A DNA stretch of 64,000 nt from a bacterium. Its GTDB lineage: Bacteria; Hydrothermota; Tepidihabitantia; Tepidihabitantales; Tepidihabitantaceae. The stretch spans positions 151,423 to 215,422 of the forward strand of contig DATJQV010000081.1 in NCBI GenBank assembly GCA_035505375.1, written 5' to 3'. The translations under genes were made by a program, and so were the position numbers. The notes below the pieces were generated by a model. The model saw nothing but the letters and a program-made list of their open reading frames with translations. It had not been told where the DNA came from and did not search any database. Positions within the stretch are counted from its first letter, which is position 1; each line of letters begins with the position of its first letter. This document shows positions 4,499 to 62,232 of the stretch, piece by piece.

Positions 4499-5632
4499 CT
4501 AGGTGGGGAAGTCCCTGCCTACCCTGAATCTCGGCTTCCATCTTACCGTGGCCCCGTCCCTTTCGAAGATGCTCTTGTTGACCCACCGGTCGGTGATCGT
4601 CCAGAACTCCGCTTCATCCATGCCGATGTACTCGCAGAACTCACGGATGTAACGTTCGTCACACTTGCCGTCATACCGCTCCACAAGCTCGGCCGCCTCC
4701 TGTCTTGACATTCGTCCTTCTCTTATGAAGTAGCAGACTTCGTCGGTGACGAAACCGAAACCGAACTTGTAGAACTTCAGCATCTGGTTGACGATCTGCA
4801 TGTCGGAGTCGATGGAGCAGTGCGGGCTCAACCGTCCGGTCAGGCTCGGCTCGTGGCCCGGCCTTCCCCGGAGGCCGTGATCGACCGCAAACTGAATATT
4901 GGCGCTGTAGGACCACTCCTTCACATAGTGGCCGATCCAGATGGCTCTGATTCCGGCCCGTCCGAGCTCGGCCGCGTCCGGGAATTGGTAGAACTGCAGG
5001 TCCTTCAGCCCGATACCATCCTGCACCCAGTCACCGGCGTTCCCTCCGCCCAGCGTGTTGTGCTGCCTGATCATCAGGGCGTCGTCGCCCGGGGGGATGC
5101 TCTCAACGACGCCAAGCGTGGCGGCCGGGTTCTCCCCCTGGATGACCAGCGGGATCCCGAACCTCAGGGCGGCCTGGTATGACACGGCAAACAACGAGTA
5201 CTCCGATGGCTTGACCGGATTGCCGTGCTCGATGAACGACCGCCGCGCAAGCGCGCGGATTACGCGGGGATTCGGTCGGTAGGAAATCATGTCGAACCCA
5301 TGTTGAACCAGATTCTCGAGGTTGCTGCGTCCCACGTCCGTGATGCCGTCGGGCGCGCAGTTCACCAGCAGCGCCCGCAGTCCGAGCCGGTCCCTTGTAT
5401 AGAAGGCCTGGACGTGGCTATCCTTACCTCCGCTGACCCCGATAATGCAATCGAAGCCTTGCCTTGCTCTTCCCCTGGCCCAATCGGCAATCTCGCGGAG
5501 CCTCTTATCTCTTTCGGCCCAGTCAATCCGAGCCGTCTCCTCCCAGTAGCGGCAGGCCGCGCATACGCCTTCTTTGTCGAATACGAGACCGGGTCTTGTA
5601 TCGGGCTGGACGCACTTCTTGCAGTACTTCAA
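4499..5632 (-). CDS. pseA: N-acetyl sugar amidotransferase (PP-loop ATPase, PseA/WbuX-like; acetamidino-forming)
   Basis: PP-loop motif SGGKDS. An N-terminal Cys-rich segment KYCKKCVQPDTRPGLVFDKEGVCAAC is typical of LPS-type amidotransferases. The proposed TTG start at 5630-5632 is preceded by AAGGAGG at an 8-nt spacing. The ORF track extends further, to 5737. Confidence 0.7.
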   Translation of the reverse strand: MKYCKKCVQPDTRPGLVFDKEGVCAACRYWEETARIDWAERDKRLREIADWARGRARQGFDCIIGVSGGKDSHVQAFYTRDRLGLRALLVNCAPDGITDVGRSNLENLVQHGFDMISYRPNPRVIRALARRSFIEHGNPVKPSEYSLFAVSYQAALRFGIPLVIQGENPAATLGVVESIPPGDDALMIRQHNTLGGGNAGDWVQDGIGLKDLQFYQFPDAAELGRAGIRAIWIGHYVKEWSYSANIQFAVDHGLRGRPGHEPSLTGRLSPHCSIDSDMQIVNQMLKFYKFGFGFVTDEVCYFIREGRMSRQEAAELVERYDGKCDERYIREFCEYIGMDEAEFWTITDRWVNKSIFERDGATVRWKPRFRVGRDFPT

Positions 5633-6407: not shown

Positions 6408-7594
6408 TTCCGGTACACCCCAATCACCTTGGTCAGAGCAAGGACCACGTCGCTGGCATCACTGTCGCTCATCGCGGGGAAGAGCGGCAGCGTCAGCATT
6501 CGGTCATACGCCTCTTCGGCCACCGGGCAGTCGCCCGGTTTCGTGCCGAAACGTCGCCGGTAGAATGGGTGTAGGTGCACCGGAACGTAGTGGACGTTCA
6601 CGCCGATGTTCTCGGCACGAAGCGCCGCAAAGATGCGGGCGCGGTCCACCTTCAGCCGCTCAAGCTGCAACTGCACCACATAGAGATGATAGGCATGACC
6701 CACTCCGGGCCGGACGCGCAGCGGCCTCACTTCCGGCATGTCGGCGAAAGCGCGGTTGTAGGTCGCGGCAATCTCGCGGCGCCGGGAAACCCACGCCGGC
6801 AGCTTCGCCAACTGGCTTAGACCCAGGGCGCACTGGAAATCGGTCATCCGGTAGTTGTAGCCGAGTTCCGTCATCTCATAGAACCAGGAGCCCCTCTCTT
6901 CGCGCTGACGATGGTCGGTGGTGATGCCATGGTTGCGGAAGATACGCATGCGCCCTGCCCGTTCGGGGTCGTCGGTCGTAATCATGCCGCCCTCGCCGGT
7001 CGTGACGTGTTTCACGGGATGAAATGAGAAGGTGCTCAGGTCTGCCAGCGAGCCGACCGGCCGCTCTCGATAGCTGCCGCCGATGGCGTGGCAGGCGTCC
7101 GCGACCAGTGCGAGCCTGTTCCTGCCCGTGACCTCGCGCAGAACGTCATAGTCGCAGGCTTGCCCGGCGTAGTCAACGGCGATGACCGCCCTGGTGCGGC
7201 GAGTGATGCGGGACTCGACCTGGCCCGGATTCAGCAACAGCGTGTCCGGGTCCACGTCGGCGAAGACCGGCGTGCCGCCCTGGTAGACGACGCAGTTGGC
7301 GCTGGCGGCAAAGGTCATGGCCGGCACAATCACCTCGTCACCTGGGCCGATTTCGAGGGCGAACATCGCGGCGTGAAGGGCAGCGGTACCGCTGCTTACA
7401 GCCACAGCCTCATTCGTGCCCACGGATTTGGCGAAGCCGCGCTCGAACTCCGCGACCCTCGGACCGGTGGTCAGCCAATCCCCTCGCAGAACCTCTACGA
7501 CCGCCCGGATGTCTTCTTCGTCAATGGACTGGTGGCCGTAGGCCAGCAGCTTCGGGCGGACCGGGGCACCGCCGTCAATCGCCAGTGACGTCAT
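6404..7594 (-). CDS. pseC: DegT/DnrJ/EryC1/StrS-family PLP aminotransferase (UDP-4-amino-4,6-dideoxy-N-acetyl-beta-L-altrosamine transaminase)
   Basis: 396 aa. It has the aminotransferase fold with a PLP-lysine region (FSFHPVKHVTTGEGG). It shows ATGA overlap coupling with pseF. Confidence 0.8.
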   Translation of the reverse strand: MTSLAIDGGAPVRPKLLAYGHQSIDEEDIRAVVEVLRGDWLTTGPRVAEFERGFAKSVGTNEAVAVSSGTAALHAAMFALEIGPGDEVIVPAMTFAASANCVVYQGGTPVFADVDPDTLLLNPGQVESRITRRTRAVIAVDYAGQACDYDVLREVTGRNRLALVADACHAIGGSYRERPVGSLADLSTFSFHPVKHVTTGEGGMITTDDPERAGRMRIFRNHGITTDHRQREERGSWFYEMTELGYNYRMTDFQCALGLSQLAKLPAWVSRRREIAATYNRAFADMPEVRPLRVRPGVGHAYHLYVVQLQLERLKVDRARIFAALRAENIGVNVHYVPVHLHPFYRRRFGTKPGDCPVAEEAYDRMLTLPLFPAMSDSDASDVVLALTKVIGVYRK

Positions 7595-7684
7595 TCCATT
7601 CCTCGCAGGGAGCCCGTCCCGGCGCGTTGGTGTTTGGATGGTACATCGGAGTATGTTAGCTTGCGTAACACGAGAGTCAACAGC

Positions 7685-8137
7685 TCATGGCTCACGGCCC
7701 GCAACAAGCGGCTTGCCAAACCTGCCGGCGGCTGTCCGGGGAAGGCGCAACTCCTGCGCGTGTAACCGCTTGGCCGGCTCGCCGATGTCGAACACATCCG
7801 TCCGTATCTTGGCCAGGACCCTAGGATCGCAGCCACGGGCCGCCCGCTTGCCCAGAAGTACCTGAACAGCCATCGCGAAGCTCTCGCCCGAGATGTGCCT
7901 CTGCCGGCTCAGTTTGTAGAGCTGCCGGCCGAAACTGAGGCAAGGGACATGCTGCGAGGTCGAAACCCCGCAGGCGTTTATGACCTCCCTGACATTGGTC
8001 TCCATCGCGCAGAGTTCGGTCATCGCCGCCTCGTAGCGCAGGGCCATTCCCTCGCGATGGTCGTTGAGCGTGTCCTTAACCCGCTCGACCTTGTACTTCG
8101 CCTTCCATCGCGCCGCACTTTTCACCGGGTCAGCCAT
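7685..8137 (-). CDS. Hypothetical small protein (150 aa); a degenerate second copy lies at about 24470-24834
   Basis: ORF with a balanced amino-acid composition. Its 5' end and upstream leader (ttcctccattcgt...) and two internal blocks are repeated almost verbatim near 24480-24790. No family was recognised. Confidence 0.45.
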   Translation of the reverse strand: MADPVKSAARWKAKYKVERVKDTLNDHREGMALRYEAAMTELCAMETNVREVINACGVSTSQHVPCLSFGRQLYKLSRQRHISGESFAMAVQVLLGKRAARGCDPRVLAKIRTDVFDIGEPAKRLHAQELRLPRTAAGRFGKPLVAGREP

Positions 8138-8380
8138 TCTGTTCCTCCATTCGTACTGCCTGTCTCACACCATCGCATTCCTGCATCGGGACCATGAACA
8201 ACTCAGCGTCCGGAAGCCAGAGGCTGGTCTCCAACCAAGAACCGTAGTATTTCAGAGTTCTGAGCCGTTCATTCTGGACTGTTTGTAGTGGAACGTGAAA
8301 TGTGGCAGCTAGATGACGTAAGGCACTCAAATGTAAGACGATAGTCGATGTGACTCATGAATCAGGATAGCACCTACCGG

Positions 8381-8685
8381 GTCACTCCCCGAGCCACTCC
8401 CCCAGTCACTCCCTGAGTGACTCCCCGAGTGAACCGGTAGGTGATCACCCCGTTGAACTGGCGGGTGAACCCCTGGGTCAGTCGGGGGATTAGTTACAGA
8501 CTGAGCTGGGAATTCATCTACCGACTTACTTGCCGGATAACTTAGTGGTTGAGTCGGTAGGTGACCCTAGGGGCGAGTCGTGGGGTGTATTGGTGGGTGA
8601 ACCGCTGGTTGACCTGCCGGATGACCTGCAGACTGACCAGCCGAATGACTTGAGCGGTGACTTGCCTAGTGACCTGCCGAGTCCA
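8381..8685. repeat. 12-nt-periodic tandem array (about 25 units, GTGAC/GTCAC-containing), copy 1
   Basis: Units include cccagtcactcc, ccgagtgactcc, ggtgacttgcct and agtgacctgccg, with a strict 12-nt register. It lies upstream of, and divergent from, the small ORF at 7685-8137. On the plus strand it reads as xDLP tetrapeptides. Confidence 0.8.
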
Positions 8686-8890
8686 ATCGGCAGCGGTTTC
8701 TCGATTCGGGTTCGATACTCTGCGCCGTGCGCTGAATCAAGCGCCGACAATCGCGCTGCTGCTCGTGATGGTTCTGAGAACGATGTGTGGGTCTGCGCAA
8801 TCGCTGAAGAGCGACGCGCTGACCGTTACGCCGGCCGGAGCCTTGGCCGGTGGCTTGCTTCGGGCCTGCGACCGGGCTTTCCGAGAAGTT

Positions 8891-11223
<2,333 letters not shown>

Positions 11224-24034: not shown

Positions 24035-24469
24035 GTTCGAGGCAATGATAGCCGCACCGGCAGGTAAGTCAACTCGCACCGACCGCCCTGAATCCGAAAT
24101 AGATGACCACGAAAACACAAGGAAACGGAGATGAGGCAGACATCCACAGATTCCGCAGATTCAGCTCCGGATTCCGGAACATCTGAGTAATCTGCGTAAC
24201 TGCGGATGGTCTCCTCTTTCGTTTCGTGTCTTTCGTGGCTTCAATATCGGCTCTGGAGACCGAGGCTTCGCCTCCTCATGGAACGGCGGGCTGCCGTCAT
24301 CCCGGCTGACCCATTCAACTCGCCTGTAATGTCAGACGAGCCCGTTCAGCTCGCCCCTCCATCACTTCGAGCACTCGCTCCTGCGATGGCCCGGCCATGT
24401 TAGACGAGTCAAGTAATCTCTCTTCGCCCGGGACGCGCCAGCGCCAGACAGCAGACGTCCCTACGACTT

Positions 24470-24834
24470 CGGCCAAGCTAGGTCGAAGACGTCCGTATCT
24501 TGGCCAGGACCTGACGCGCCCACGGCGCGAGTTACCAGTTTCCAGTTGGCAGGTTGCAGGATTCAGACGGCGGGATCGGAAGGCATTGCGTCGAGACCCC
24601 GCAGGCGTTGATGACCGCTTCGCCCTTGGTCTACATGGCGCATACCCGGGGAATGGTTGCTTCGTAGCGCACGGCCAAGTCTTCGCACAGGTCGCCAAGC
24701 GTCTCCCCGACTCGTTTCAGGTTGTACCTAGCCTTCGAGCGGACCGCTCTCTTCTTCTGGTCAGTCATATCGTTCCTCCATTCGTGTCTTGCTTGTTGCA
24801 ACGCCATAGTACCAGAGCGTATTCCATCCATCAA
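24470..24834 (-). pseudogene. Degenerate, internally deleted copy of the small ORF at 7685-8137
   Basis: The first roughly 35 codons are conserved (KARYNLKRVGETLGDLCEDLAVRYEA versus KAKYKVERVKDTLNDHREGMALRYEA). The frame is then lost. Downstream DNA retains the blocks cgtccgtatcttggccaggacc and ccccgcaggcgtt(g/t)atgacc found in copy 1. Confidence 0.55.
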
Positions 24835-24910
24835 CTGGCGCTATCAACAAGCATAAGCTATTGATATTTAAGGTGATAATTGGCATGCAGAGTCACCCGC
24901 GCCAGCACTC

Positions 24911-25222
24911 GGTAAGTCACTCCCCCAGTGATTCCCCCAGTCACTCCCCCAGTGACTCCCCCAGTCACTTACCGAGTGACTTACCGAGTCACTTGCCTGG
25001 TGAGTCACCGAGTGACTGGGCGAGTGACTCGCCTGGTGACTTACCGACTGACATGGTAAGTGACATGCCCAGTTACTTGCCCAGTGAGTTGCCGAGTGAC
25101 TTACCCAGTGACTCGTCTAGTGAGTCGGCAAGTGACTTGCCTAGTGACACGCCGAGTGACTCGCCGAGTGAATTACCTAGTGAATTACCGAGTGGTTTGC
25201 TGAGTGGTTTGCTGAGTAGTTT
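24911..25222. repeat. 12-nt-periodic tandem array (about 26 units), copy 2; possibly the coding part of a Ser-x-x-Pro tetrapeptide-repeat ORF (24885-25250, plus strand)
   Basis: Units cccagtcactcc, ccgagtgactta, cctagtgacacg and others in perfect register. In the plus frame they read SHSP SDSP SDLP SELP. The fourth codon varies ccc/ccg/cct, which is synonymous. AAGGTG lies 9 nt before the ATG at 24885. Confidence 0.75.
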
Positions 25223-25415
25223 GAAGACGGGTATGCAGCGTGTCGGCTGATTGGGCGCTGACCATGGCCTTGATCATTCCAAGGACGGCAGCTTGCGGCG
25301 GTATATAGACACCAGGAATGCAGGAAGCCATCCAGCAAGCTCTTGGACGAACAATCTATGGAGCCTTCTGGCGAGCAGCGGAGCCAGTCCCGACCGGTGC
25401 TGTTGAGGCCGCGCT

Positions 25416-26834
25416 CTAGCGCGTCAGGACCACCTTTCGGACAGCTTGCGCTTGAGCTTCTCGCACGAAGTACACGCCGGGGCTGAGGCGGCTCACGTCA
25501 TTCGCGCCCGCCATCAGGCCCATCACCTTCCGCCCGCTCACGTCCAGCAGGCTTGCGGCTTGTGGCTTGCAGCTTGCGGCTTCCGGAAGGAACAGCGCTC
25601 CGCGAACGACCGTCGTGGCCGGCTTGCGGCTTGAGGCTTGTGGCTTGAGGCTCTCTTCTACCCCTGAGGCGCACAGATAGCTGCCCCAGATCTGCTGGTC
25701 ACTGCTCTGCCATATGCACCAGTGTTCGGTAACACCGACTGTGGTCATGGTCGGGTTGGTCTTCCGCGCGGAGTCGATGCACACCGGAACGTCCTGGCTC
25801 GAGAACATTGTCCGCGAGTAGATATCAGAACCTCCGTTCCGGTTCGACACCCACGCCACCGCAGCCTGATTCCAGGACTCGGTCGTGTACTCGGCCGGAG
25901 TTCCGCAGGGCGTGAAGTTGCTGCCGGCTCCGCTTGAGTCGCACCACCGTCGTCCGACCGAGAACGTGTCCATCGCTGTGCCGTAGACAGCCGTGTCGCC
26001 GTCGCGCGTCGATTCCCATGTAATCCATGGTCCCAAAGCGACCGGCGTCGGGCCGTAGCTTATCACATCGGGATTGCGGTCCAGCGCCGCCGAGTGCGCG
26101 ACCTCCTGCGGCGTCAGCCAGGACCCACTTACGTACTCGCTGTAGAAGATGTCGCCGTGTGTCTCCCAGACGAGCAGCGGGCAACCATAGTAGAGCCCGT
26201 GGTAGCCGCGGCCGAGCCGCGCGTGGCGAATCGTGTCGACCTGGACCACCGCAGCCCGCTGCGTCGTCCACGAATCACCGCCGTTGAACGAATAGTCGAT
26301 GTGCCAGCCGTCCGTATCCTGACAGGTCCAAGTCACCCAGGCCGTGTCGTACGGGCTGCCGTGTCTGATGGCCATCACCTGCGGCCACGTCGAATCGACG
26401 CCGGCAGTTTTGCCGGAACCGACCAGAACCCGTGAACTCCACGCCTGTCCGGCCGTGTCGAATTGCGCGTAGATATCAGCCGTACCGGCGGGGTGCTCCC
26501 AGACGCAGCAGAAAACAGGCCTGCCCGAAGACGCGTCATTAACGCAGGCGACGGCAGGGTTGACTGCAGCCAGGTTTCCGGAGATTAGTGTAGCAGGCCC
26601 CCACCCGTTGCCGTCAGTGAATGAACAGAGCTGACCGAACACTTCCCAGCGGACGCCACTGGCGAAGGACTGCCAGACCATGCACGTCGTGTCACCGAAC
26701 ACCCATTCCTTGCAGGCCGACGGCTTGATGCCGCCGATGCTGTCGCCCAAGAGGAACGGCCCGGTCCAGCCCTGCGCTGCCGCGTGGGGTGGGACTAAAG
26801 CGCAGAGAATCAAAACTATGATGCAGAACCTCAA
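25416..26834 (-). CDS. BNR/Asp-box repeat secreted protein with a C-terminal T9SS/FlgD-Ig-like sorting domain
   Basis: Signal peptide, Trp-rich repeats with S-x-D-x-G-x-T-W boxes (SFNGGDSWT) and a CTD ending ANDVSRLSPGVYFVREAQ...VVLTR. Confidence 0.65.
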   Translation of the reverse strand: MRFCIIVLILCALVPPHAAAQGWTGPFLLGDSIGGIKPSACKEWVFGDTTCMVWQSFASGVRWEVFGQLCSFTDGNGWGPATLISGNLAAVNPAVACVNDASSGRPVFCCVWEHPAGTADIYAQFDTAGQAWSSRVLVGSGKTAGVDSTWPQVMAIRHGSPYDTAWVTWTCQDTDGWHIDYSFNGGDSWTTQRAAVVQVDTIRHARLGRGYHGLYYGCPLLVWETHGDIFYSEYVSGSWLTPQEVAHSAALDRNPDVISYGPTPVALGPWITWESTRDGDTAVYGTAMDTFSVGRRWCDSSGAGSNFTPCGTPAEYTTESWNQAAVAWVSNRNGGSDIYSRTMFSSQDVPVCIDSARKTNPTMTTVGVTEHWCIWQSSDQQIWGSYLCASGVEESLKPQASSRKPATTVVRGALFLPEAASCKPQAASLLDVSGRKVMGLMAGANDVSRLSPGVYFVREAQAQAVRKVVLTR

Positions 26835-29450: not shown

Positions 29451-30725
29451 TTACCTGACCACCACGACCCTCCTGACTCCCGCGCGCTCGTGGCCTACTC
29501 CTCCATCTCCCACAAAGTACACGCCCGGCGCAAATCGCGACACATCGTTTGCGCCTATATGCAGCTCCGCCACTCTGCGCCCCGCCGCATCCAGCAGGCT
29601 TGCGGCTTGTGGCTTGCGGCCTGAGGACTGCCGCAGCAACAGGACGTTCCTGACGACTGAGGGAATTCTCGACAGGCTGCTGACTGCCGACTGCTGCGGC
29701 GCATCGCTCAGTGCGGCAACGCCCACCCCGTGGGCGACGTGAATGGAACCGTCGCTCAAGCGGTATGCGATCACGGGCTGTGAAAGTGAATCGGTCGTTA
29801 TGTCACAGCAGGTGATACTGACGCCGCTCAAGACCACCTGTATCGGCTCATGGAGCAAGTCGAACTCCAGCGCATTGTTGCCTACCCATACGCACTGCAC
29901 GCGGCCGGAGCCGTCCAGGCAGGCCGCGCCGATGGAAGTGTAACCGTCCAGTCGCACCCCATCGCAGACAAGTTCATCAGTCCCGTAAGGGTCGCCTGCC
30001 GACCAGAGTGTGTGAATGCTGTCGGAGCTGTCAGCCAACGCCGCAAACCCGCAACCGCCGCCGTCGAGTCCGCCCGCTCCGCCGAAGTCTGTCCAGACAC
30101 CGTTGTCTCGTCGTTTGAGAGAGACGTCGTAACCGTCAATCAAGCCACCCTCGGTCCACACGTCGGCCTCAATGAGTGCGCAGTTGCCGTTCCGGCGCCA
30201 ACCCGGGCGGGTAAGGGAATACGTGTTGCTATCCGTCATGTAGACAACATTCGTATCCCAGGAGGAATCAGTCTTCAGGCCAAGACACCCGCGCCAGAGG
30301 CTGTCCTTGAACGTAAGCGATGGCCGACCGGCCGGGTCATAGCTTAAGGCCGCATCTCTCATGGGCATCGGTAGTTGCTCAGATGACCAGACGGAGTCTC
30401 TGCGTTCGGCGAGTCGTCCCGATCCCACTACGCCCATCACATCTCCAGGCCCGATGTCAAACGAGAAAGGCGGCCGGACGAGCGACGTATCCAAGTCTTC
30501 GTACCACCACCCCGCGTCCGCGTGCGCAAGCCGGATGACGGAATCGCGGTTCTCGTAGGCGAGCCAGATGGTCCCGTCACTCGTCTTGTCAATGGTCACG
30601 TACGACCCAATGCTCCCATTGTCCACCAGTGCGAAGGTCCAATAGCCTGCACGGCAGATGGTCGCGACCGTGGCAATGGCGACCACGGATATTTGAAGAC
30701 GCCGGCAGAAGTCAAACGTTGCCAT
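29451..30725 (-). CDS. Secreted T9SS-CTD protein, paralog 3 of 3
   Basis: The start is taken at MATFDFCRRLQISVVAIATVATICRAGYWTFALVDNGSIGSYVTIDKTSDGTIWLAY. The ORF is open upstream to 30989, probably without meaning. Confidence 0.55.
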   Translation of the reverse strand: MATFDFCRRLQISVVAIATVATICRAGYWTFALVDNGSIGSYVTIDKTSDGTIWLAYENRDSVIRLAHADAGWWYEDLDTSLVRPPFSFDIGPGDVMGVVGSGRLAERRDSVWSSEQLPMPMRDAALSYDPAGRPSLTFKDSLWRGCLGLKTDSSWDTNVVYMTDSNTYSLTRPGWRRNGNCALIEADVWTEGGLIDGYDVSLKRRDNGVWTDFGGAGGLDGGGCGFAALADSSDSIHTLWSAGDPYGTDELVCDGVRLDGYTSIGAACLDGSGRVQCVWVGNNALEFDLLHEPIQVVLSGVSITCCDITTDSLSQPVIAYRLSDGSIHVAHGVGVAALSDAPQQSAVSSLSRIPSVVRNVLLLRQSSGRKPQAASLLDAAGRRVAELHIGANDVSRFAPGVYFVGDGGVGHERAGVRRVVVVR

Positions 30726-36041: not shown

Positions 36042-36129
36042 TCATTTTCGATTTCCGCTTGTCGATTTCCGATTGTCCGCCCAGACTTCTGAATTCTGCC
36101 TTCTGGTTTCTGAATTCTGAATCGTCCTG

Positions 36130-37657: not shown

Positions 37658-38815
37658 TCACTCCTTTTCGGTTCGGGTCAAGAAACGTTCGACATGATCC
37701 CGCCTTGGCATGGATGGTTCAGCGCCCATGATGGTGCAGGCGAGAGCGCCGCAGGCGTTGGCGAATCGCACAGCTTCATCAAGGCTGGCACCCTCGGCAA
37801 TTCTCACCGCCAATCCGGCGCGGAACGCATCCCCAGCGCCGGTCGTGTCCACGACGTTCACCTTGTGCGCCGGGAACCGGGTCAGCGCGGCGCGGTCAAC
37901 TGCCAGCGCGCCTTCTTCGCCGAGTGAGATAACCACGCCCTGCCGCGTCTCGGGCAGAAGCACAGCCGCCGCTTCCTCCGGCGTCATCCTGCCGGTCAGC
38001 ATGTGGGCTTCGATTTCGTTGGGCACAAGGTAGTCAAAGTAGAAGTCGTCCAGTGGTCTCGTGGTCGAGTGTTCCGGCATCTCCGTTCTGGAACTCTGGC
38101 TTCTGCCCCCTTCTGTCTGACTTGGTGCCTTTGCGTCTTGGTGGTGAAATCCGTCTCCGCAATTCTGGTTTCTAGTTTCTGGTTTCTGGTCTCTGGTTTC
38201 TCCGTCCGCCTTTGTGTCTTCGTGTCTTTGTGGTGAATCCCCGCAATTCTGGACCCTGGACTCTGGATTCTGGATTCTGGATTCTTCCTGTCCTCCATGC
38301 CTCACCGGCGCAGGGTCGAGCAGCACCAGTGTTCCGTGCTTCCGGGCAATCTCGGCGGCACGCCGCGACGCTGCCAACGGTATCTCGAACTGGAGCATCA
38401 GGATGTCGGCGAGGGCAATCTGCTCCTCTACCGCGAGCACATCCTCGGGCGTCACGCGCATGTTGGCCCGCGGCGCGGCGATGATGCTGTTCTGCCCGTT
38501 CTCGTCCACGACCGGCGTGGCAATCGCGGTTCCCGCCTCAGGGTCGCGGGTCACGCCACTCAGGCAGATTCCTTCCTGCTCCAGCTTGGCGACGAACATG
38601 TCACCGAACGGGTCGCGGCCGACCCGACCGACGATGCACACGTCAGCGCCCAGTCGCCTCGCTCCGACCGCCTGGTTGAACCCCTTGCCGCCGAGGAACA
38701 TACCGAAGTCTTCGGCCAGCATCGTCTCGCCCGGTCCGGGCCGGTGCTTCACTCTAAACATGAGGTCGGTCACGAAGCTCCCGACAACCAGAACGCGAGG
38801 CCGGTCGCCTTTCAT
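37658..38815 (-). CDS. PfkB/ribokinase-family sugar kinase carrying an in-frame insertion of about 75 aa
   Basis: N-terminal GGKGFNQA and C-terminal DTTGAGDAF motifs. Between LDPAPV and DDFYFDYLVPNE, where E. coli RbsK has about 8 residues, lies about 75 aa of low-complexity sequence. It is encoded by heptamer and 35-nt repeats at 38090-38300. Confidence 0.7.
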   Translation of the reverse strand: MKGDRPRVLVVGSFVTDLMFRVKHRPGPGETMLAEDFGMFLGGKGFNQAVGARRLGADVCIVGRVGRDPFGDMFVAKLEQEGICLSGVTRDPEAGTAIATPVVDENGQNSIIAAPRANMRVTPEDVLAVEEQIALADILMLQFEIPLAASRRAAEIARKHGTLVLLDPAPVRHGGQEESRIQNPESRVQNCGDSPQRHEDTKADGETRDQKPETRNQNCGDGFHHQDAKAPSQTEGGRSQSSRTEMPEHSTTRPLDDFYFDYLVPNEIEAHMLTGRMTPEEAAAVLLPETRQGVVISLGEEGALAVDRAALTRFPAHKVNVVDTTGAGDAFRAGLAVRIAEGASLDEAVRFANACGALACTIMGAEPSMPRRDHVERFLTRTEKE

Positions 38816-41908: not shown

Positions 41909-42023
41909 CATGCCCAAACCTCAGCCCAGCAGCCTGGTCAGTTCCAGCCGACTACCTCGGTCAGAACGACCTTGCGGATGGCTTGCGGCTTGAGGCTTGG
42001 AGCTTGGGGCAGAGTGGCCTCGG

Positions 42024-45546: not shown

Positions 45547-45615
45547 CAGGGGATTCGGATAATCCAGAATCCAGAGTCCAGAGCTCAGAATCCAGAATCG
45601 ACGGACGGGACGAGG

Positions 45616-45975: not shown

Positions 45976-46041
45976 TGTCGGGTTTGTCAATTCTGGGTTC
46001 TAGTCTCTGGATTCTGAATTCTGGACTATCCGGAGTCCGCC

Positions 46042-47259: not shown

Positions 47260-48013
47260 AGCGACCAGGGATGAGGGACTAGGGGCTAGGGGTCAGGTTT
47301 CGGACCCTGACCCCCAACCCCTGACCCCTGACCCCTCGGTCGTGCTCCGCGCGACCGACGTATGGCGCGTGTTCGAGACCGGGGCTGAGCGTCTGGAAAT
47401 CCTCCGCGGCGTGAACCTGGAGGTCAGCCGAGGCGAGCTGGTGGCGATTCTCGGCCCTTCGGGAACCGGCAAATCTACCCTCCTGCACGTGCTCGGAGCG
47501 CTGGATCGCCCCACAAGAGGCCGAGTGTTCCTTGATTCAGCTGACGTTTTCAGCTACCCTGAGTCCAAGCTCCACGAACTGAGAAATCGGAAGCTCGGGT
47601 TCGTGTTCCAGTTTCACCACTTGCTGTCCGAGTTCACGGTTCTGGAGAACGTGGCAATGCCGCTGCTTGTTGCGGGCGTGGCTCGGCCCGAGGCGATGGA
47701 CCGTGCGCACCGCGTGCTCGAGGACGTCGGATTCCTGACCCGGCTCACCCACCGGCCGTCCGAGCTATCGGGCGGAGAAAAGGCGCGGGCGGCAGTGGGA
47801 CGCGCGCTGGTGAATAACCCGGCGGTGATTCTCGCCGACGAGCCGACCGGCAACCTCGACACGACCTCGGCGGCGGCGCTGGTTGACCTGATGGTGCGAC
47901 TGAGCAGCGAAAGGAAAATGACGATTCTGGTAGTGACTCACAATCAGTCCGTCGCCGACCGAGCGACACGCCGGCTCCATCTAGCCGAAGGAAGACTCAC
48001 GGAGGAGAGGTGA
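47252..48013 (+). CDS. lolD: Lipoprotein-release ABC transporter ATP-binding protein LolD
   Basis: Walker A GPSGTGKST, LSGGE signature and ILADEPTGNLD. ATGA overlap with lolE. The first 30 codons run through a GGGGYTA/GGGGTCA heptamer element. An alternative GTG start lies at 47342. Confidence 0.8.
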   Translation: MSEATRDEGLGARGQVSDPDPQPLTPDPSVVLRATDVWRVFETGAERLEILRGVNLEVSRGELVAILGPSGTGKSTLLHVLGALDRPTRGRVFLDSADVFSYPESKLHELRNRKLGFVFQFHHLLSEFTVLENVAMPLLVAGVARPEAMDRAHRVLEDVGFLTRLTHRPSELSGGEKARAAVGRALVNNPAVILADEPTGNLDTTSAAALVDLMVRLSSERKMTILVVTHNQSVADRATRRLHLAEGRLTEER

Positions 48014-49743: not shown

Positions 49744-51260
49744 GGCAGAAGGGGTCAGGGGTCAGGGGTCAGGGGTCAGAAGCTGGAAGTCAGAATAAGC
49801 AGACCGGACTGCGCGGACTTCCGTCGGTGGACAAACTTCTCAGTGACGAGACGCTCGCGCCCGTGCTCGCGCAAGTCCACCGCCGCATGGCGGTGCGGGC
49901 AATCCGAGCCTATCTCGACGAGCTACGGGAGAACCTGAAAGAGCCGCAACACGCAGACGGCAAGCCCCAAGCGTTCTCAATGGCGGAGTTGCTGCGCCGA
50001 CTCGAACGAGAGCGCAAGCCGACGCTGGCGCGCGCCATCAATGGCCTTGGCGTCATTCTGCACACTGGGCTGGGGCGCGCGCCGCTGTCCAAGGCTGCAC
50101 AGGAAGCGCTTACTGACGTGAGCGAGCACTTCTCCAGCCTTGAAATCGACATCGAGACCGGACGGCGCGGCAGCCGCTACCGGCACATCGAACCGCTGCT
50201 GTGCGAACTGACGGGCGCTGAGGCGGCGATGGTCGTCAACAACAACTGCGCGGCTACCTTGCTAATCCTGTCCGGGCTGGCCAAAGGCAAAGAGGCGATT
50301 GTCTCGCGCGGCCAGCTTGTCGAAATCGGCGGCGCGTTCCGAATCCCCGACGTGATGATGCAAAGCGGATGCAAGATGGTCGAGGTCGGCACGACCAATC
50401 GCACTCACCTGCGCGACTACAATAATGCCATCACTCCGGAGACGGCGCTCCTGCTCCGGGTTCACACCTCCAACTACAAGATTACCGGGTTCACCAAGGA
50501 AGTAAGCCTCGAAGAGATGGTAGCTCTCGCCCAAGAGGTCAATCGCTCGCCCCTCGCCCCTCGCCCCTCGCCCCTCCTCGTCGTGGACGACCTCGGTTCA
50601 GGGGCGCTCGTCGACCTTTCGAAGTACGGCCTGCCCAAGGAACCGCTGGTACAGGAATCGGTCAAGGCCGGAGCGGACGTCATCTGCTTCTCCGGGGACA
50701 AACTCATTTCCGCGTCGCAAGCCGGCATCATCGTCGGCAAGAAGAAGCACATCGACCTGCTGAAGAAGCATCCGCTCACCCGGGCCATGCGCTGCGGCAA
50801 GCTCACCTACGCCGTGCTCGAACGGACACTGGAGCTGTTCCTTGACGAGGAACGCGCAGTCAAGGAACATGCGCTCTTCCAGTTACTGCTGAAGACCACG
50901 GACCAGATGCAGGGCGAAGCCGATGAACTCGTGCGCCGGGTTCAGTCTCTTCTCCCTCTCCCTCTCCCTCCGGGAGAGGGTTGGGGTGAGGGCGACAACG
51001 TCGTGGCCAAGTTCACCGTCAGACCTGCTCTTTCCGAAATCGGCGGCGGCTCACTCGCGACCGAGAGCCTCGAATCGCGGGTAGTTGCCATCACGCCGAA
51101 GACGATGCATGTCGACGAGCTGGCCCGTCGCATGCGTCTCAATCGGCCCCCGGTGTTCGGCCGGGTCGAAAAGGGCGAATACCTGCTCGACTTCCGTACC
51201 CTCCGCCGCGACGAAATCCCCATTATCTCTTCCGCGCTCCTCTCCGCTTTCCAGCAGTAG
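49740..51260 (+). CDS. selA: L-seryl-tRNA(Sec) selenium transferase SelA
   Basis: PLP fold with the lysine in FSGDKL. A GTGA overlap with the mcsB stop. The N-terminus and two internal sites contain heptamer or palindromic insertions. Confidence 0.75.
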   Translation: MRQKGSGVRGQGSEAGSQNKQTGLRGLPSVDKLLSDETLAPVLAQVHRRMAVRAIRAYLDELRENLKEPQHADGKPQAFSMAELLRRLERERKPTLARAINGLGVILHTGLGRAPLSKAAQEALTDVSEHFSSLEIDIETGRRGSRYRHIEPLLCELTGAEAAMVVNNNCAATLLILSGLAKGKEAIVSRGQLVEIGGAFRIPDVMMQSGCKMVEVGTTNRTHLRDYNNAITPETALLLRVHTSNYKITGFTKEVSLEEMVALAQEVNRSPLAPRPSPLLVVDDLGSGALVDLSKYGLPKEPLVQESVKAGADVICFSGDKLISASQAGIIVGKKKHIDLLKKHPLTRAMRCGKLTYAVLERTLELFLDEERAVKEHALFQLLLKTTDQMQGEADELVRRVQSLLPLPLPPGEGWGEGDNVVAKFTVRPALSEIGGGSLATESLESRVVAITPKTMHVDELARRMRLNRPPVFGRVEKGEYLLDFRTLRRDEIPIISSALLSAFQQ

Positions 51261-57362: not shown

Positions 57363-57410
57363 GATTGGGGCTAGGGGTTAGGGAATAGGGGTTAGAGAGG
57401 ACACGGGAGG

Positions 57411-57791: not shown

Positions 57792-57800
57792 CCCTAGTCC

Positions 57801-58625
57801 CTAACCCCTAATCCCTAGTCCCTTACCCGCTCGCCTCTTGGGCGAGAAGAGCAGGCACAGCCCGAACAACGCGCTCGACGTTACTATGATGACCGCGCCC
57901 GCCGGGGCGTCAGTCAACCACGAGACGAGTAGTCCAATCAGGCACGACAGAATCCCAAACAACGCCGAAAGCAAGTACATGGTCCTCAGCCGATAGGTCA
58001 ACTGGTACGCTGCTGACGGTGGGTTGACGATGAGGCTGAAGATGAGGAGCCCGCCGATGGTGCTCAAGTTGGCGGTTACCGACAGGCCGCACAAGACCAG
58101 CATTGCGAAGAAGAGCGCTCGCTCGGGTATCCCGACCGCGCGGGCGATTTCCCGGTTGTAGAGCACGGCCTGGATTTCCTTGTAGAACAGCCAGAGAAAC
58201 AGCAGCACCACTACTGCCGCGCCGGCCATCACCGCGAGGTCGCGCCCGGCCACGAGCAGGATGCTGCCCCATATCAGGCCGAGAGCGTTGGCGCGTGAGC
58301 CGCGCATCAGGCCGATGGCAAGAAAGGCGAGGCCGAGCACGAGCGAGAAGATGATGCCAAGCGAGACATTGGGTTCGATGTCAGCGCGCTCGGCAACCGG
58401 GCCGACGAGGAACGACGCGGCGATGCAGAAGACCGCGGCGGTAATGAGCGGGTTTACTCCGAGCAGCAGTCCGGTTACCGCACCGGCAAAGGCCGCGTGC
58501 GACATCGCCACCCCGACAAATGGTATGTTCATCATCACGACCCAGACCCCGACGATGCCGCAGACCAGCCCTCCGAGAACTGCGGCAGCAAGCGGCCGCC
58601 AGAGTATGGCGAGTTCAGGCGGCAT
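57801..58625 (-). CDS. znuB: ABC-3 family metal (Zn/Mn/Ni) transporter permease
   Basis: 274 aa with 8-9 TM helices. Confidence 0.75.
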   Translation of the reverse strand: MPPELAILWRPLAAAVLGGLVCGIVGVWVVMMNIPFVGVAMSHAAFAGAVTGLLLGVNPLITAAVFCIAASFLVGPVAERADIEPNVSLGIIFSLVLGLAFLAIGLMRGSRANALGLIWGSILLVAGRDLAVMAGAAVVVLLFLWLFYKEIQAVLYNREIARAVGIPERALFFAMLVLCGLSVTANLSTIGGLLIFSLIVNPPSAAYQLTYRLRTMYLLSALFGILSCLIGLLVSWLTDAPAGAVIIVTSSALFGLCLLFSPKRRAGKGLGIRG

Positions 58626-59349: not shown

Positions 59350-59375
59350 TCGTTCCTCGCCCTGACCCCTGGCCC

Positions 59376-60188
59376 CTAGTCCCCGGCCCCTGTCCCAACT
59401 GCCTGCGCCAGCGCCGATGCGTTGTCGAGCAGCGCCTGGCGGTAGGACCCGTGCAGCGGGAAGTTGGTCAGGGTGACGTGCTTTGCCTTGAGCGCCTCGG
59501 CGAGCGGCCTGCCCGCGTCCGGGCCGGATTGCAGATTATCGACGACGAGGCTTGCGCCGGAGTCGAGCGCGACGCGAGCCAGGCGGGTGAGTCCCTGAGC
59601 GGTGAAGTCCTCGGCCCGACCAAAGGTCGCCACCACCCGGAATCCGAGTGACGCGACGAACGGCGCCTGCTGGTCAGCCGCGATTACCGCCGGCAGTTGC
59701 TTTCCTGCGAGCAGCGTCCGTGCGGCAACCGCGGCCGAGTCGACATCGGCCCCGTAGCGCAACCCTGCCAGCCGATATGTGTCGGCGTGCCCCGGGTCGA
59801 GTCCCTGCAACAAGGTGGTAATTTCAGCGGCTGCCTGCTTCTGTAGTTCGGGAATCATCCAGTTTCCCTGTGTCGCAAGCGTCACTCTCCTCGGGCCGGG
59901 CGGGATGATCGCCTTCTCCAGCGCCGGGTACCAGGCTTCCCAGCCGTGGTTCAGGATGAGCCGGGCGTTGTTCGCCGCAGTCACATCCGACGGCTTCAGG
60001 TCGAACTGCCCCGGACACAGCCCGGCCGGGGCAATGGTAGTGACTGCGAATCGGTCACCGCCAATCGTTTGTACAATCGTGCTGATGAGCGTGGTAGAGG
60101 CGACCACACGGATTCGGCCTGACGGCCGGGCGCAACCGAAGATCGTAACCCCGACGAGGAACAATCGCATCAAGAGCTTCTTTGCCAT
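59376..60188 (-). CDS. znuA: TroA/ZnuA-family metal-binding periplasmic lipoprotein
   Basis: Lipobox IFGC and the ZnuA/TroA fold pattern. The start is taken at MAKKLL. Confidence 0.7.
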   Translation of the reverse strand: MAKKLLMRLFLVGVTIFGCARPSGRIRVVASTTLISTIVQTIGGDRFAVTTIAPAGLCPGQFDLKPSDVTAANNARLILNHGWEAWYPALEKAIIPPGPRRVTLATQGNWMIPELQKQAAAEITTLLQGLDPGHADTYRLAGLRYGADVDSAAVAARTLLAGKQLPAVIAADQQAPFVASLGFRVVATFGRAEDFTAQGLTRLARVALDSGASLVVDNLQSGPDAGRPLAEALKAKHVTLTNFPLHGSYRQALLDNASALAQAVGTGAGD

Positions 60189-60756: not shown

Positions 60757-62232
60757 ATGAGACCTATAGGACGGATTGGACCTATATGTCTTACCTTGTT
60801 CTGCGCGTTCGCAACGGCGCACGCCGCTACCGTCACCTGGGACACAATCACCAGGCTCACCGCCAACTCCGCGAACCAGGTAACGGGCCGCTCCGGTCAA
60901 CACGGCCTCGCGGTCGATGCATCGGGCGATGTCCACGTCGTCTGGCTGGACCAGCGTACCGTCCCGTATCAGGTCTGGTATCGGCGATACGACGCGGGCA
61001 CGAGCACGTGGCTGGCCGAGACTACGCTGACCACGCAGCAGGCCAATTGTTCTCAACCGGGAATGGCCTGTGACAGCGCGGGCAACATACATGTCGCCTG
61101 GCAGGTCATGAACTGGAACCCCCTTGGGGTCGGCACCTGGGCCAAACGTTACAACGTTTCGACGCATCACTGGCGGGTCGACACCTTGATTGACAGCACC
61201 GGCACGAGCCAGCCACAGCAGTATCCCTCGGTTGCCTGTGTGCCCGGCACCGGCGATTTGGAAGTAGCCCTGTACAAACTGCCTGACACCGGTATGTACA
61301 CCCAGGTTTTCCTCAAAGAGTGGCATCCGGCAACCGGATGGGACTCCGTGGTGCAAGTCTCGTCTGCGGCAGTCAACCATGACCAGGTGTCGGTCGCGGC
61401 GGGTCTGAACGGCGATGTCGCGGTTATCTGGGTCGGCAAGGACCTCGGCGATGCTTACAGCCAGGTCTACTGCCGCCGCCGCGTCGGCGGAACATGGCAG
61501 GGAGTCGAACTTGTCTCCGCCCCTGCCGGGCTGAGCCAGTATTCGCCCTGCGCCGCGTTCGACCGGGAAGGCGCCGTCCACGTCGTCTGGCACGGCTTGG
61601 CGGGCTCATACCAGCAGGTCTTTCACCGAGAATGCGATGCCGGAACCTGGTCCGGCGTCGACGACGTAAGCGGACAGCAGTCATACCAGCAGGAGTTTCC
61701 CTCAATAGCGTGCGATGCGGCCGGACGATGCCACGTGGTCTGGTGCAGCCAGGCCGGCGGCACCAACTATCAACTTGCCTATGCCCAGCGCGATACCGAC
61801 GGGGTCTGGAGTTCGCCAACCACACTCACCGCGCTCGACTCCGGAAGCGTCAACTACCCTTCAATTGCCTGCGACGCCGTCTCAGGCATCCACATCGTCT
61901 GGTACGACAATCACACCGGCAACCAGGACGTCTACTACCTCCACGGCGTCCCTGCGGGCACGGGCGTCCTCGAAACCCGTCCCTCGTCCGTCGTCCCTCG
62001 TCCCTACACTGCCGCGACACTAGTCCGTGGCGTGCTCTTCTTGAGAGGAAGCCGAAGAGCAAGCTCAAGCCCAGGCCCAGGCTGCGTGCTCGACATCAGC
62101 GGCAGGAAGGTCCTCGATCTACTGCCGGGCGCAAATGACGTGCGGGGGTTGGCTCCAGGGGTGTACTTCGTGAGGGAGGCTCAGACGCAGGTTCAAGCAC
62201 AAGCTGTCTCGAAGATCGCGATTACGAGGTAA
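60757..62232 (+). CDS. BNR-like Trp-rich repeat secreted protein with a T9SS/FlgD-Ig CTD
   Basis: Signal MRPIGRIGPICLTLFCAFATAHA. Repeats resemble those of 25416-26834. The CTD is ANDVRGLAPGVYFVREAQ. Confidence 0.6.
   Translation: MRPIGRIGPICLTLFCAFATAHAATVTWDTITRLTANSANQVTGRSGQHGLAVDASGDVHVVWLDQRTVPYQVWYRRYDAGTSTWLAETTLTTQQANCSQPGMACDSAGNIHVAWQVMNWNPLGVGTWAKRYNVSTHHWRVDTLIDSTGTSQPQQYPSVACVPGTGDLEVALYKLPDTGMYTQVFLKEWHPATGWDSVVQVSSAAVNHDQVSVAAGLNGDVAVIWVGKDLGDAYSQVYCRRRVGGTWQGVELVSAPAGLSQYSPCAAFDREGAVHVVWHGLAGSYQQVFHRECDAGTWSGVDDVSGQQSYQQEFPSIACDAAGRCHVVWCSQAGGTNYQLAYAQRDTDGVWSSPTTLTALDSGSVNYPSIACDAVSGIHIVWYDNHTGNQDVYYLHGVPAGTGVLETRPSSVVPRPYTAATLVRGVLFLRGSRRASSSPGPGCVLDISGRKVLDLLPGANDVRGLAPGVYFVREAQTQVQAQAVSKIAITR

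Follow-up and report, generated by a model that had tools for sequence, protein, structure and literature searches.

The stretch of DNA analysed here (the window) covers 64,000 nt of a bacterial contig (DATJQV010000081.1, positions 151,423 to 215,422) and holds two copies of a module formed by a small gene and, upstream of it and divergently arranged, an array of 12-nt tandem repeats. Such a two-part module had been described in the first-pass annotation of this DNA, and it is indeed present at both positions, with repeats far above chance and with conservation in related loci well outside the window. The unit pattern AGTSACNNNCCNAGTSAC has 52 matches in the window against two expected, nearly all of them within the two arrays. 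Comparisons of sequence profiles and of a predicted fold give good support to the view that the small gene codes for a bacterial protein homologous to the major capsid protein of the filamentous viruses of archaea (realm Adnaviria), with the SIRV2-type fold; the array is likewise well supported, from its pattern of substitution and spacing, as a 12-bp-phased element acting at the DNA level.

The two modules of the window

In copy 1, the small gene is a 150-aa open reading frame (ORF) on the minus strand (7685-8137), as first annotated, though the typical length in the family is 123 aa. The domain typical of the family, with its homology to the Adnaviria capsid protein, occupies codons 1-121 (7775-8137) and is followed by a C-terminal extension (7685-7774, minus strand), the unusual length being due to the loss of the normal stop codon (27-aa tail). 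Upstream of the start codon are found the ribosome-binding-site region (8141-8154, minus strand), which reads GTTCCTCCATTCGT on the plus strand and ACGAATGGAGGAAC in the orientation of the gene, and a degenerate promoter (8271-8300, minus strand; -35 TTTCAC at 8295-8300, -10 CAGAAT at 8271-8276) recognized in an alignment of the spacers of 18 loci. The array (8371-8690, plus strand, on which the core reads TGA) lies on the opposite strand, about 235-550 bp upstream of the ORF. It comprises about 26 slots, 12 bp each, in a heavily degenerated state, and is traced by Tandem Repeats Finder (TRF), by repeat spacings that are multiples of 12, by an inverted pair and by phase coherence. TRF reports 12-nt arrays at 8377-8430 and 8610-8680, and lag-12 autocorrelation spans about 8325-8720; the promoter-proximal units are inverted (GTCAC/GCCAC, 8380-8415) and are followed by a phased TGA series between 8418 and 8670, where 15 of the 16 TGA triplets share one phase modulo 12 (p = 1e-14). 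The whole is homologous, and in phase, to the array of a related locus (L063), with a 24-nt indel.

In copy 2, the gene is clearly dead and the array intact. An N-terminal remnant (MTDQKKRAVRSKARYNLKRV...; 24631-24768, minus strand), identified by translation and by a DNA alignment with copy 1 that covers about 200 nt, some 70% of them identical, is a pseudogene with an in-frame stop after residue 45. The damage had been described as an internal deletion; the gene is damaged, not by a simple deletion, but by a junction at which the N-terminal half is joined to a 45-nt hairpin element (24506-24561, minus strand; CGCGCC-GTG-GGCGCG; nhmmer, E = 5e-17) and, beyond this, to a displaced fragment that copies the 50-odd nt at the 3' end of the gene (...VLAKIRT...; 24460-24512, minus strand). 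The latter was recognized by nhmmer, the model having been built from the final 66 nt of intact genes (E = 7e-10), and ends at a TAG (24460-24462) aligned with the family stop, an earlier in-frame stop preceding it. The ribosome-binding-site region (24772-24785, minus strand; 14-mer match and 18-locus alignment) is identical to that of copy 1, so that the 5' leader said to be common to both copies is this exact 14-mer, conserved across the family; in the window it has two exact matches, and three at two or fewer mismatches against 0.4 expected. The promoter (24806-24834, minus strand; -35 TTGATG at 24829-24834, 17-nt spacer, -10 TACTAT at 24806-24811) looks intact in the spacer alignment and was not listed by a generic sigma-70 scan. 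The array, again as annotated, is delimited by TRF at 24915-25223 (plus strand) and consists of about 26 clean 12-bp units with consensus AGTGACTTGCCG; its first seven units alternate between AGTCAC and AGTGAC with C5 spacers, and 18 phased TGAs are found at 24929-25181 (phase coherence p = 4e-13). A methyltransferase gene adjoins this copy; a database look-up gave no record for it.

The two copies are not an assembly duplication, because their flanks beyond the module do not align and copy 2 is nearer in nucleotide sequence to an intact third paralogue on another contig of the same genome (locus L001, protein P0027; 77.7% identity) than to copy 1 (70.9%). On these alignments they are different, old paralogues and no local duplication of one another. 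The picture of a duplicated module decaying in alternate halves therefore holds for the gene of copy 2, whose decay is clear, and not for the duplication; the decay of copy 1 is suggestive, pointed to by its degenerate promoter, its lost stop codon and four replacements at near-invariant columns of the protein (Y63H, Y66C, N68S, W98R), all of them qualitative signs, its pairwise dN/dS (0.14) showing no relaxed selection. Since the unit AGTGACTTGCCG is common to the arrays of copy 2 and of L001, the orphan array of copy 2 could be served in trans by P0027.

A bacterial family related to the Adnaviria capsid protein

A first homologue search with the small protein gave 156 relatives, nearly all of 122-124 aa, the few named ones belonging to candidate division WOR-3, and a profile search of 1.84 billion representatives enlarged the family to 799 clusters at 50% identity (E <= 1e-3), taxonomic names resting on close relatives among the matches listed. 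A scan of genomes, one per species, found 53 family loci, each WOR-3 genome carrying 3-8 diverged copies; numerous loci are fragments, and numerous ones lie at the ends of contigs. The family is large and unannotated. All named sources are WOR-3 save one locus (L045), on a 3.8-kb contig (JAWOHA010000053.1) binned as a Cryobacterium sp. metagenome-assembled genome, i.e. as actinobacterial, which is likely to be mis-binned because all other named sources are WOR-3, lateral transfer being the alternative. The gene is under purifying selection (dN/dS 0.06-0.27), and paralogues inside one genome, 50-80% identical, combine such selection with conserved promoters. Scans against PHROGs, PADLOC and NCBIfam gave no meaningful match, and membership of a known defence, phage or NCBI family was discarded on this basis.

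The relation to the capsid proteins emerged with the breadth of the alignment used. A profile search of PDB sequences with a narrow family alignment found two capsid proteins at E = 0.39-0.87, short of significance, and hhalign of that alignment against seven capsid proteins (five of rudiviruses, and ORF132 and ORF140 of AFV1) gave a probability of 93.7%. With a profile of 74 diverse members, the hhalign probability rises to 98.1% (E = 1e-13, 113 columns) and an hmmsearch of 177,635 PDB sequences returns Adnaviria capsid proteins as all of its best eight matches (SSRV1, 9.8e-9; SIRV2, 3.8e-8; SFV1, 3e-5). Furthermore, 45 of the 74 members, when scanned one by one against Pfam, match Sulf_coat_C (PF12193; best 1e-7). 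The gathering threshold of that family (25.2 bits) is reached neither by the window protein (13.1 bits) nor by the canonical member P0007 (23.5 bits), and the family has no annotation because even P0007 scores below it; by these scores it is a divergent branch missed by the curated Pfam thresholds. An AlphaFold2 model built from the family alignment is all-helical, with a core predicted local distance difference test (pLDDT) score of 85-90, and shows an extended N-terminal helix and, in its C-terminal portion, a four-helix bundle, as in SIRV2-type capsid proteins; the top four matches of a Foldseek search against the viral models of BFVD are Adnaviria capsid proteins.

The likeness to the capsid proteins of this realm (SIRV2 ORF134, SSRV1, AFV1 ORF132/ORF140, SFV1 VP4 and PFV2; Pfam Sulf_coat_C and MCP_C) extends over the full length in both sequence and fold. 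The sizes are similar (123 aa versus 130-140 aa), and a region R-[YW]-x-K-[WY]-x-A-K-[FY] in the N-terminal basic helix is common to both, as is the four-helix bundle of the C-terminal portion. In the virions of SIRV2 and AFV1 the asymmetric unit consists of one capsid-protein dimer and 12 bp of A-form DNA (PMC5517147), and likewise in that of PFV2 (PMC7189273): the 12 bp wrapped per dimer in the virion equal the period of the array beside the small gene. The differences lie in the setting. The small gene is found on bacterial WOR-3 chromosomes among housekeeping genes rather than in archaeal virus genomes, as several diverged paralogues per genome, with no other viral genes beside it, and it is paired with a sequence-phased array, whereas the coating of DNA in virions is thought to be sequence-independent. 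The capsid protein has been described as unique and adnavirians as being without known connection to bacterial viruses in a 2024 review (PMC10848233). No earlier report of bacterial homologues was found in the literature searched, most subscription journals being outside its reach. Against the description of a unique protein, there are here clear bacterial homologues on chromosomes, under purifying selection, paired with DNA whose period is that of the dimer footprint.

The array as a 12-bp-phased DNA element

The linkage of gene and array is a property of the family. In 37 of the 41 loci that have enough upstream sequence, the strongest autocorrelation lag (range 4-30) is 12 or 24 nt, and this includes distant clades with a non-TGA motif; the linkage holds across clades whose proteins are 50-55% identical, and the period of 12 is kept where the motif has changed. 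In the clade of the window the common core is TGA on the strand opposite to the gene, with the same polarity relative to the gene in all loci. TGA is repeated at a spacing of precisely 12 nt and hardly ever at one of 9-11 or 13-15 nt, with a phase coherence per array of p = 1e-8 to 1e-17 (1e-4 in one short array), and the phase is retained across 250-580 bp of otherwise diverged sequence. Homologous arrays remain in phase through indels, e.g. of 24 nt, while the spacers between cores diverge: identity at T, G and A is 0.89-0.93, as compared with 0.68-0.81 at the other nine positions. Young units have the form AGTnACT, an odd palindrome, and as such quasi-palindromic, which would match the two-fold symmetry of a dimer; near the promoter, successive units switch orientation, with C5 tracts between them. 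Runs of GG/CC favour the A form of DNA, a point that is speculative here.

These substitution patterns bear directly on whether the array could instead be a protein-coding gene, divergent from the small gene, for a disordered protein of Ser-x-x-Pro (SxxP) or x-Asp-x-Pro tetrapeptide repeats, which had been offered as one of two readings of it. A 129-aa ORF spanning the array of copy 2 (24861-25250, plus strand) does exist, the SxxP frame is open over whole arrays also in L001 (121 aa), L014, L041 and L042, such ORFs are sometimes called by gene callers, and a weak match to the Pfam 'PT disordered repeat' family is obtained. A unit such as AGTGACTTGCCG, however, leaves five of the six frames open by construction, and the arrays do not evolve as codons do. 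Identity between homologous arrays at codon positions 1, 2 and 3 (0.75, 0.74 and 0.78) has no 3-nt periodicity; the best-conserved base, the T of TGA, would be a third codon position, with the second position of the same codon left free, and the Ser codon would invariably be AGT. Stops in the SxxP frame (53 in 2410 codons) are not depleted with respect to four other frames (55-59 in three of them), and the orthologous loci L004 and L008, with identical small proteins, have different in-frame stops within the array, past which the periodicity runs on. Neither a start codon nor a ribosome-binding site is conserved for the ORF. Four of these tests, which are independent (orthologue stops, the conserved third-position base, codon-position identity and stop counts), led us to reject the SxxP repeat protein, and we regard a coding role for the array as very improbable. 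The 129-aa ORF of copy 2 is best read as incidental, a by-product of units that are young and uniform and that happen to be stop-free.

The same data can be set against another view, namely that the array is functionless satellite DNA, a hitch-hiker expanded by slippage whose agreement with the 12-bp footprint is a coincidence. Arrays do evolve faster than the flanking spacer and gene, many are degenerate, a few intact genes have none, and the young ones resemble recent products of slippage. Satellite DNA would hardly be expected, on the other hand, to keep its linkage and its period of 12 across clades 50-55% identical despite a change of motif, to hold its phase over hundreds of diverged base pairs, to conserve the TGA core selectively or to keep its position relative to a promoter, and we consider this view improbable.

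Position of the array relative to the promoter

In 18 aligned loci the module has a constant order: array, AT-rich stretch, promoter, 5' leader of variable length, ribosome-binding site CGAATGGAGGAAC (conserved before the start codon) and gene. The spacer alignment shows between array and gene a conserved sigma-70-type promoter directed at the gene, TTGAC(A/T)-N17-TAnnnT, which was missed by a generic sigma-70 scan and became apparent when the loci were aligned. The array ends a few tens of base pairs upstream of the conserved -35 element.

This arrangement is of importance when considering that the array might act as RNA, i.e. as a transcribed repeat bound or processed by the small protein, in the manner of a decoy or of a type III antitoxin. 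A tandem repeat beside a small protein gene invites the comparison, which is encouraged by the fixed strand polarity of the core relative to the gene in all loci, by the alternating AGTCACT/AGTGACT units, which could form 7-bp hairpins, and by the AT-rich stretch before the -35 element, which could hide a divergent promoter. In the type III toxin-antitoxin systems (ToxIN and relatives), as in the module, a tandem nucleotide repeat stands directly upstream of a small protein gene, and modules of the family often lie among toxin-antitoxin genes, a further likeness. Type III repeats have a unit of 34-45 nt, about 36 nt in ToxIN and its relatives, in 2-6 units. The array differs in its 12-nt unit and its 25-50 units, and the module in having the promoter between repeat and gene and a protein that is no endoribonuclease; PADLOC and Pfam give no ToxN/AbiQ match for the small protein. 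A type III system was rejected on promoter position, unit length and protein fold. As regards an RNA more generally, array and gene would not be co-transcribed from the conserved promoter, because it lies between them and faces away from the array; the protein is homologous to a capsid protein that wraps double-stranded DNA; and no terminator was found. No Rfam family matches the array: at gathering thresholds Rfam finds only a tRNA in the window, and copy 2 gives only chance hairpin matches under E = 1, on which result a known RNA family was discarded. Altogether, an array acting as RNA appears quite improbable.

The layout also resembles the centromere systems of plasmids and prophages (ParR/parC, TubR/tubC and the omega heptad arrays), in which the gene for a small DNA-binding protein is preceded by short direct, in some cases inverted, repeats at its own promoter. 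Centromere arrays of this kind have about 4-10 units. Those of WOR-3 have 25-50, in a chromosomal and multicopy setting, and their protein is all-alpha and of capsid type, as opposed to the ribbon-helix-helix or winged-helix proteins of centromeres. A partner motor gene (ParA, ParM or TubZ-like) is absent among the called neighbours of the family modules. In the centromere systems, cooperative binding of the protein to the repeats produces a nucleoprotein structure of higher order and also represses the promoter, as with TubR on tubC (PMC6009700).

A proposed phased row of dimer-binding sites

The explanation that best accounts for the whole, and which we hold to be reasonably probable, is that the capsid homologue and its array form a pair in which the array is a phased row of dimer-binding sites that nucleates a nucleoprotein filament. 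The protein would dimerize, the array would offer 25-50 slots each fitting one dimer, and cooperative assembly along these would produce the filament. Being placed next to the gene's own promoter, such a filament would bring about autoregulation, as with the plasmid centromere-binding proteins, and may have a further structural role; autoregulation is the simplest consequence, because the array ends so close to the sigma-70-type promoter of the gene. Of the two readings of the array first put forward, that of a series of sites bound by the small protein is thus favoured, given the homology with a DNA-wrapping capsid protein and the 12-bp dimer footprint. The steps do not all stand on the same ground. 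The homology, the linkage of gene and array, the 12-bp phasing, the non-coding evolution of the array and the place of the promoter are shown by the data; the footprint of 12 bp per dimer comes from the literature on virions; binding of the adjoining array by the small protein, one dimer per unit, is strongly inferred; that this binding would regulate the promoter is what we infer from the position of the array; and autoregulation, a chromatin-like structure and a relic packaging signal are candidate roles.

Several observations weigh against such a phased row of dimer-binding sites. Virion capsid proteins bind DNA without sequence preference, and for the fold a site phased by sequence would be something new. 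The conserved TGA core is non-palindromic, while a symmetric homodimer is expected to prefer a symmetric site, and only the young units are quasi-palindromic. The array motif tracks the protein clade, but this is not independent evidence of recognition, because gene and array are physically linked and co-inherited. A 12-nt period can also be produced by slippage of any 12-nt unit; four intact genes (L012, L020, L025 and L048) have a weak array or none; and the ancestral N-terminal arm is known from the model alone, at a pLDDT of 70-80.

If binding of the array by the protein is true, the origin of the capsid fold would become testable, as exaptation of a cellular DNA-binding protein versus domestication of a capsid. 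For this fold, the array would then be the first nucleation site defined by its sequence, a mesophilic protein would make A-form wrapping readily accessible to work in vitro, and an unrecognized class of bacterial nucleoprotein structure would be indicated.

Insertion, cassettes and the question of mobility

The 1296 bp that separate pseB from pseC are filled by copy 1. In 38 of 48 other loci the two genes adjoin directly, at a distance of -70 to +16 bp, and the small gene is present in none of the 80 loci retrieved, so that copy 1 is an insertion. A search for repeats in 7560-8920 found only array-internal repeats and short chance pairs, i.e. neither terminal inverted repeats nor a target-site duplication, and a transposon or an element like a miniature inverted-repeat transposable element was not retained for this copy. 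Directly downstream of the copy 1 gene and upstream of pseC lies a sigma-70-like site (TTGACT-N16-TAACAT; 7653-7680, minus strand), which might drive pseC-pseF now that the module separates these genes from pseB.

Fifteen related loci have toxin-antitoxin cassettes (DUF4258/MqsA, DUF433/PIN, HicAB or MNT/HepT) downstream of the small gene, and behind each cassette stands a copy of the gene's final 54-166 nt, in the same orientation as the gene and ending at its stop codon. Such displaced 3' fragments were located in L005 (7148-7200, 7926-7989 and 10762-10826), L008 (3594-3646 and 4373-4438), L001 (10236-10295), L014 (5203-5268) and L035 (2420-2484), besides the window (24460-24512). The 45-nt element CTGCAACCTGCCAACTGGAAACTGGTAACTCGCGCCGTGGGCGCGTC, with its 6-bp GC hairpin, has 21 nhmmer matches, all co-oriented with the gene, about 50 nt past the stop codon of intact genes and before displaced 3' fragments, e.g. 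in L004 (6426-6471 and 7095-7151), L018/L019 (3412-3468), L021 (3410-3468), L051 (2306-2352) and L063 (4356-4395); it may serve as a terminator or as a site of recombination.

The pattern looks like repeated integration of cassettes at the conserved 3' end of the small gene. A repeated boundary sequence after each cassette is also what is seen in integron cassette arrays and in tRNA-gene attB sites with tandem accretion of islands, an att-site or Campbell-type pattern; the repeated boundaries hold in the related loci, the window having one such junction, in copy 2. Unlike integrons and att islands, the duplicated small-gene fragments differ in their left ends, an indication that recombination was driven by homology and was not precisely site-specific. 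Within 3-6 kb, on contigs many of which are short, Pfam labels of the called genes and clustering of neighbouring ORFs revealed no integrase or recombinase gene. The accretion of cassettes at the 3' end of the small gene hints at one more way of capturing genes, so far undescribed.

The suggestion of a mobile or recombinogenic unit, made at first pass, is thereby supported as regards the insertion between pseB and pseC and the duplication of the 3' end after toxin-antitoxin cassettes, and not as regards terminal repeats, target-site duplication or a recombinase gene within 3-6 kb, none of which was found. In its strongest form, the module would be the relic of, or a minimal, mobile element or Adnaviria-related bacterial virus, with the array as packaging or terminal signal and the copies as integrated remnants; the binding mechanism would be the same and the role a different one. 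Besides the insertion of copy 1 and the att-like duplication of the 3' end, this is favoured by the multicopy nature of the family, with many copies on short contigs or at contig ends, and by the frequency of fragments and pseudogenes. Family loci have as neighbours housekeeping genes (the pse operon, rnpA-yidC-mnmE, ScpB), toxin-antitoxin genes and cargo genes of the type IX secretion system (T9SS); when a recurrent neighbour (integrase or motor) was sought by clustering of neighbouring ORFs, only proteins with the T9SS sorting domain, abundant in these genomes, recurred, and no other viral or mobility gene was recurrent beside the module. The 2.9 million contigs of IMG/VR hold no relative of the small protein, on account of which a provirus or viral contig was discarded. 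Terminal inverted repeats and target-site duplication are lacking in the search described above, and the paralogues, old, under purifying selection and with conserved promoters, are unlike recently transposed copies. We therefore regard a relic element as unlikely.

With the cassettes taken into account, the proposal of a row of dimer-binding sites can be carried further, in a form that is plausible but clearly more tentative. The WOR-3 paralogues would be cellular DNA-wrapping proteins, and on the chromosome the 12-bp-phased array belonging to each would nucleate its assembly into a short A-form filament, which would be a new element of bacterial chromatin; among cellular proteins, this one would be the first with kinship to the Adnaviria capsid protein, as a candidate for its ancestor or its descendant; and the 3' end of its gene would serve as a landing pad for toxin-antitoxin cassettes.

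Other observations

In L001, at 5008-5145 and 4609-5007, the intact paralogous module directly adjoins a candidate L34-like ORF and rnpA-yidD-yidC-mnmE, a cluster that commonly flanks the bacterial replication origin. Past its 12-nt array, a second repeat region (5326-5519) has a 6/24-nt period of the type (CTCAAC)n, the other strand of which reads Val/Glu/Lys-rich peptides; a second region of this type was not seen in the window copies.

In the window, 7-nt tandem repeats of 4-5 copies each, some of them 100% identical, occur at 25550-25586, 25621-25652, 29597-29620, 36044-36122, 38163-38285, 41980-42010, 45561-45599, 45990-46025, 47263-47336, 49750-49779, 50546-50576, 57367-57395, 57792-57823, 59360-59396 and 61978-62005. 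At least the first two lie inside the region encoding the C-terminal sorting domain of a T9SS cargo gene (ORF 25416-26834, minus strand). Because seven is not a multiple of three, gain or loss of copies would alter the reading frame, and the repeats could be a phase-variation device. Finally, a long tandem repeat with a period of 126/252 nt, made up of about 12 units that are roughly 71% identical, runs off the end of the window (62485-64000); its consensus appears to encode ...YCAN...SDNVTVIDG... repeats, which are typical of YVTN-type beta-propeller repeat proteins.

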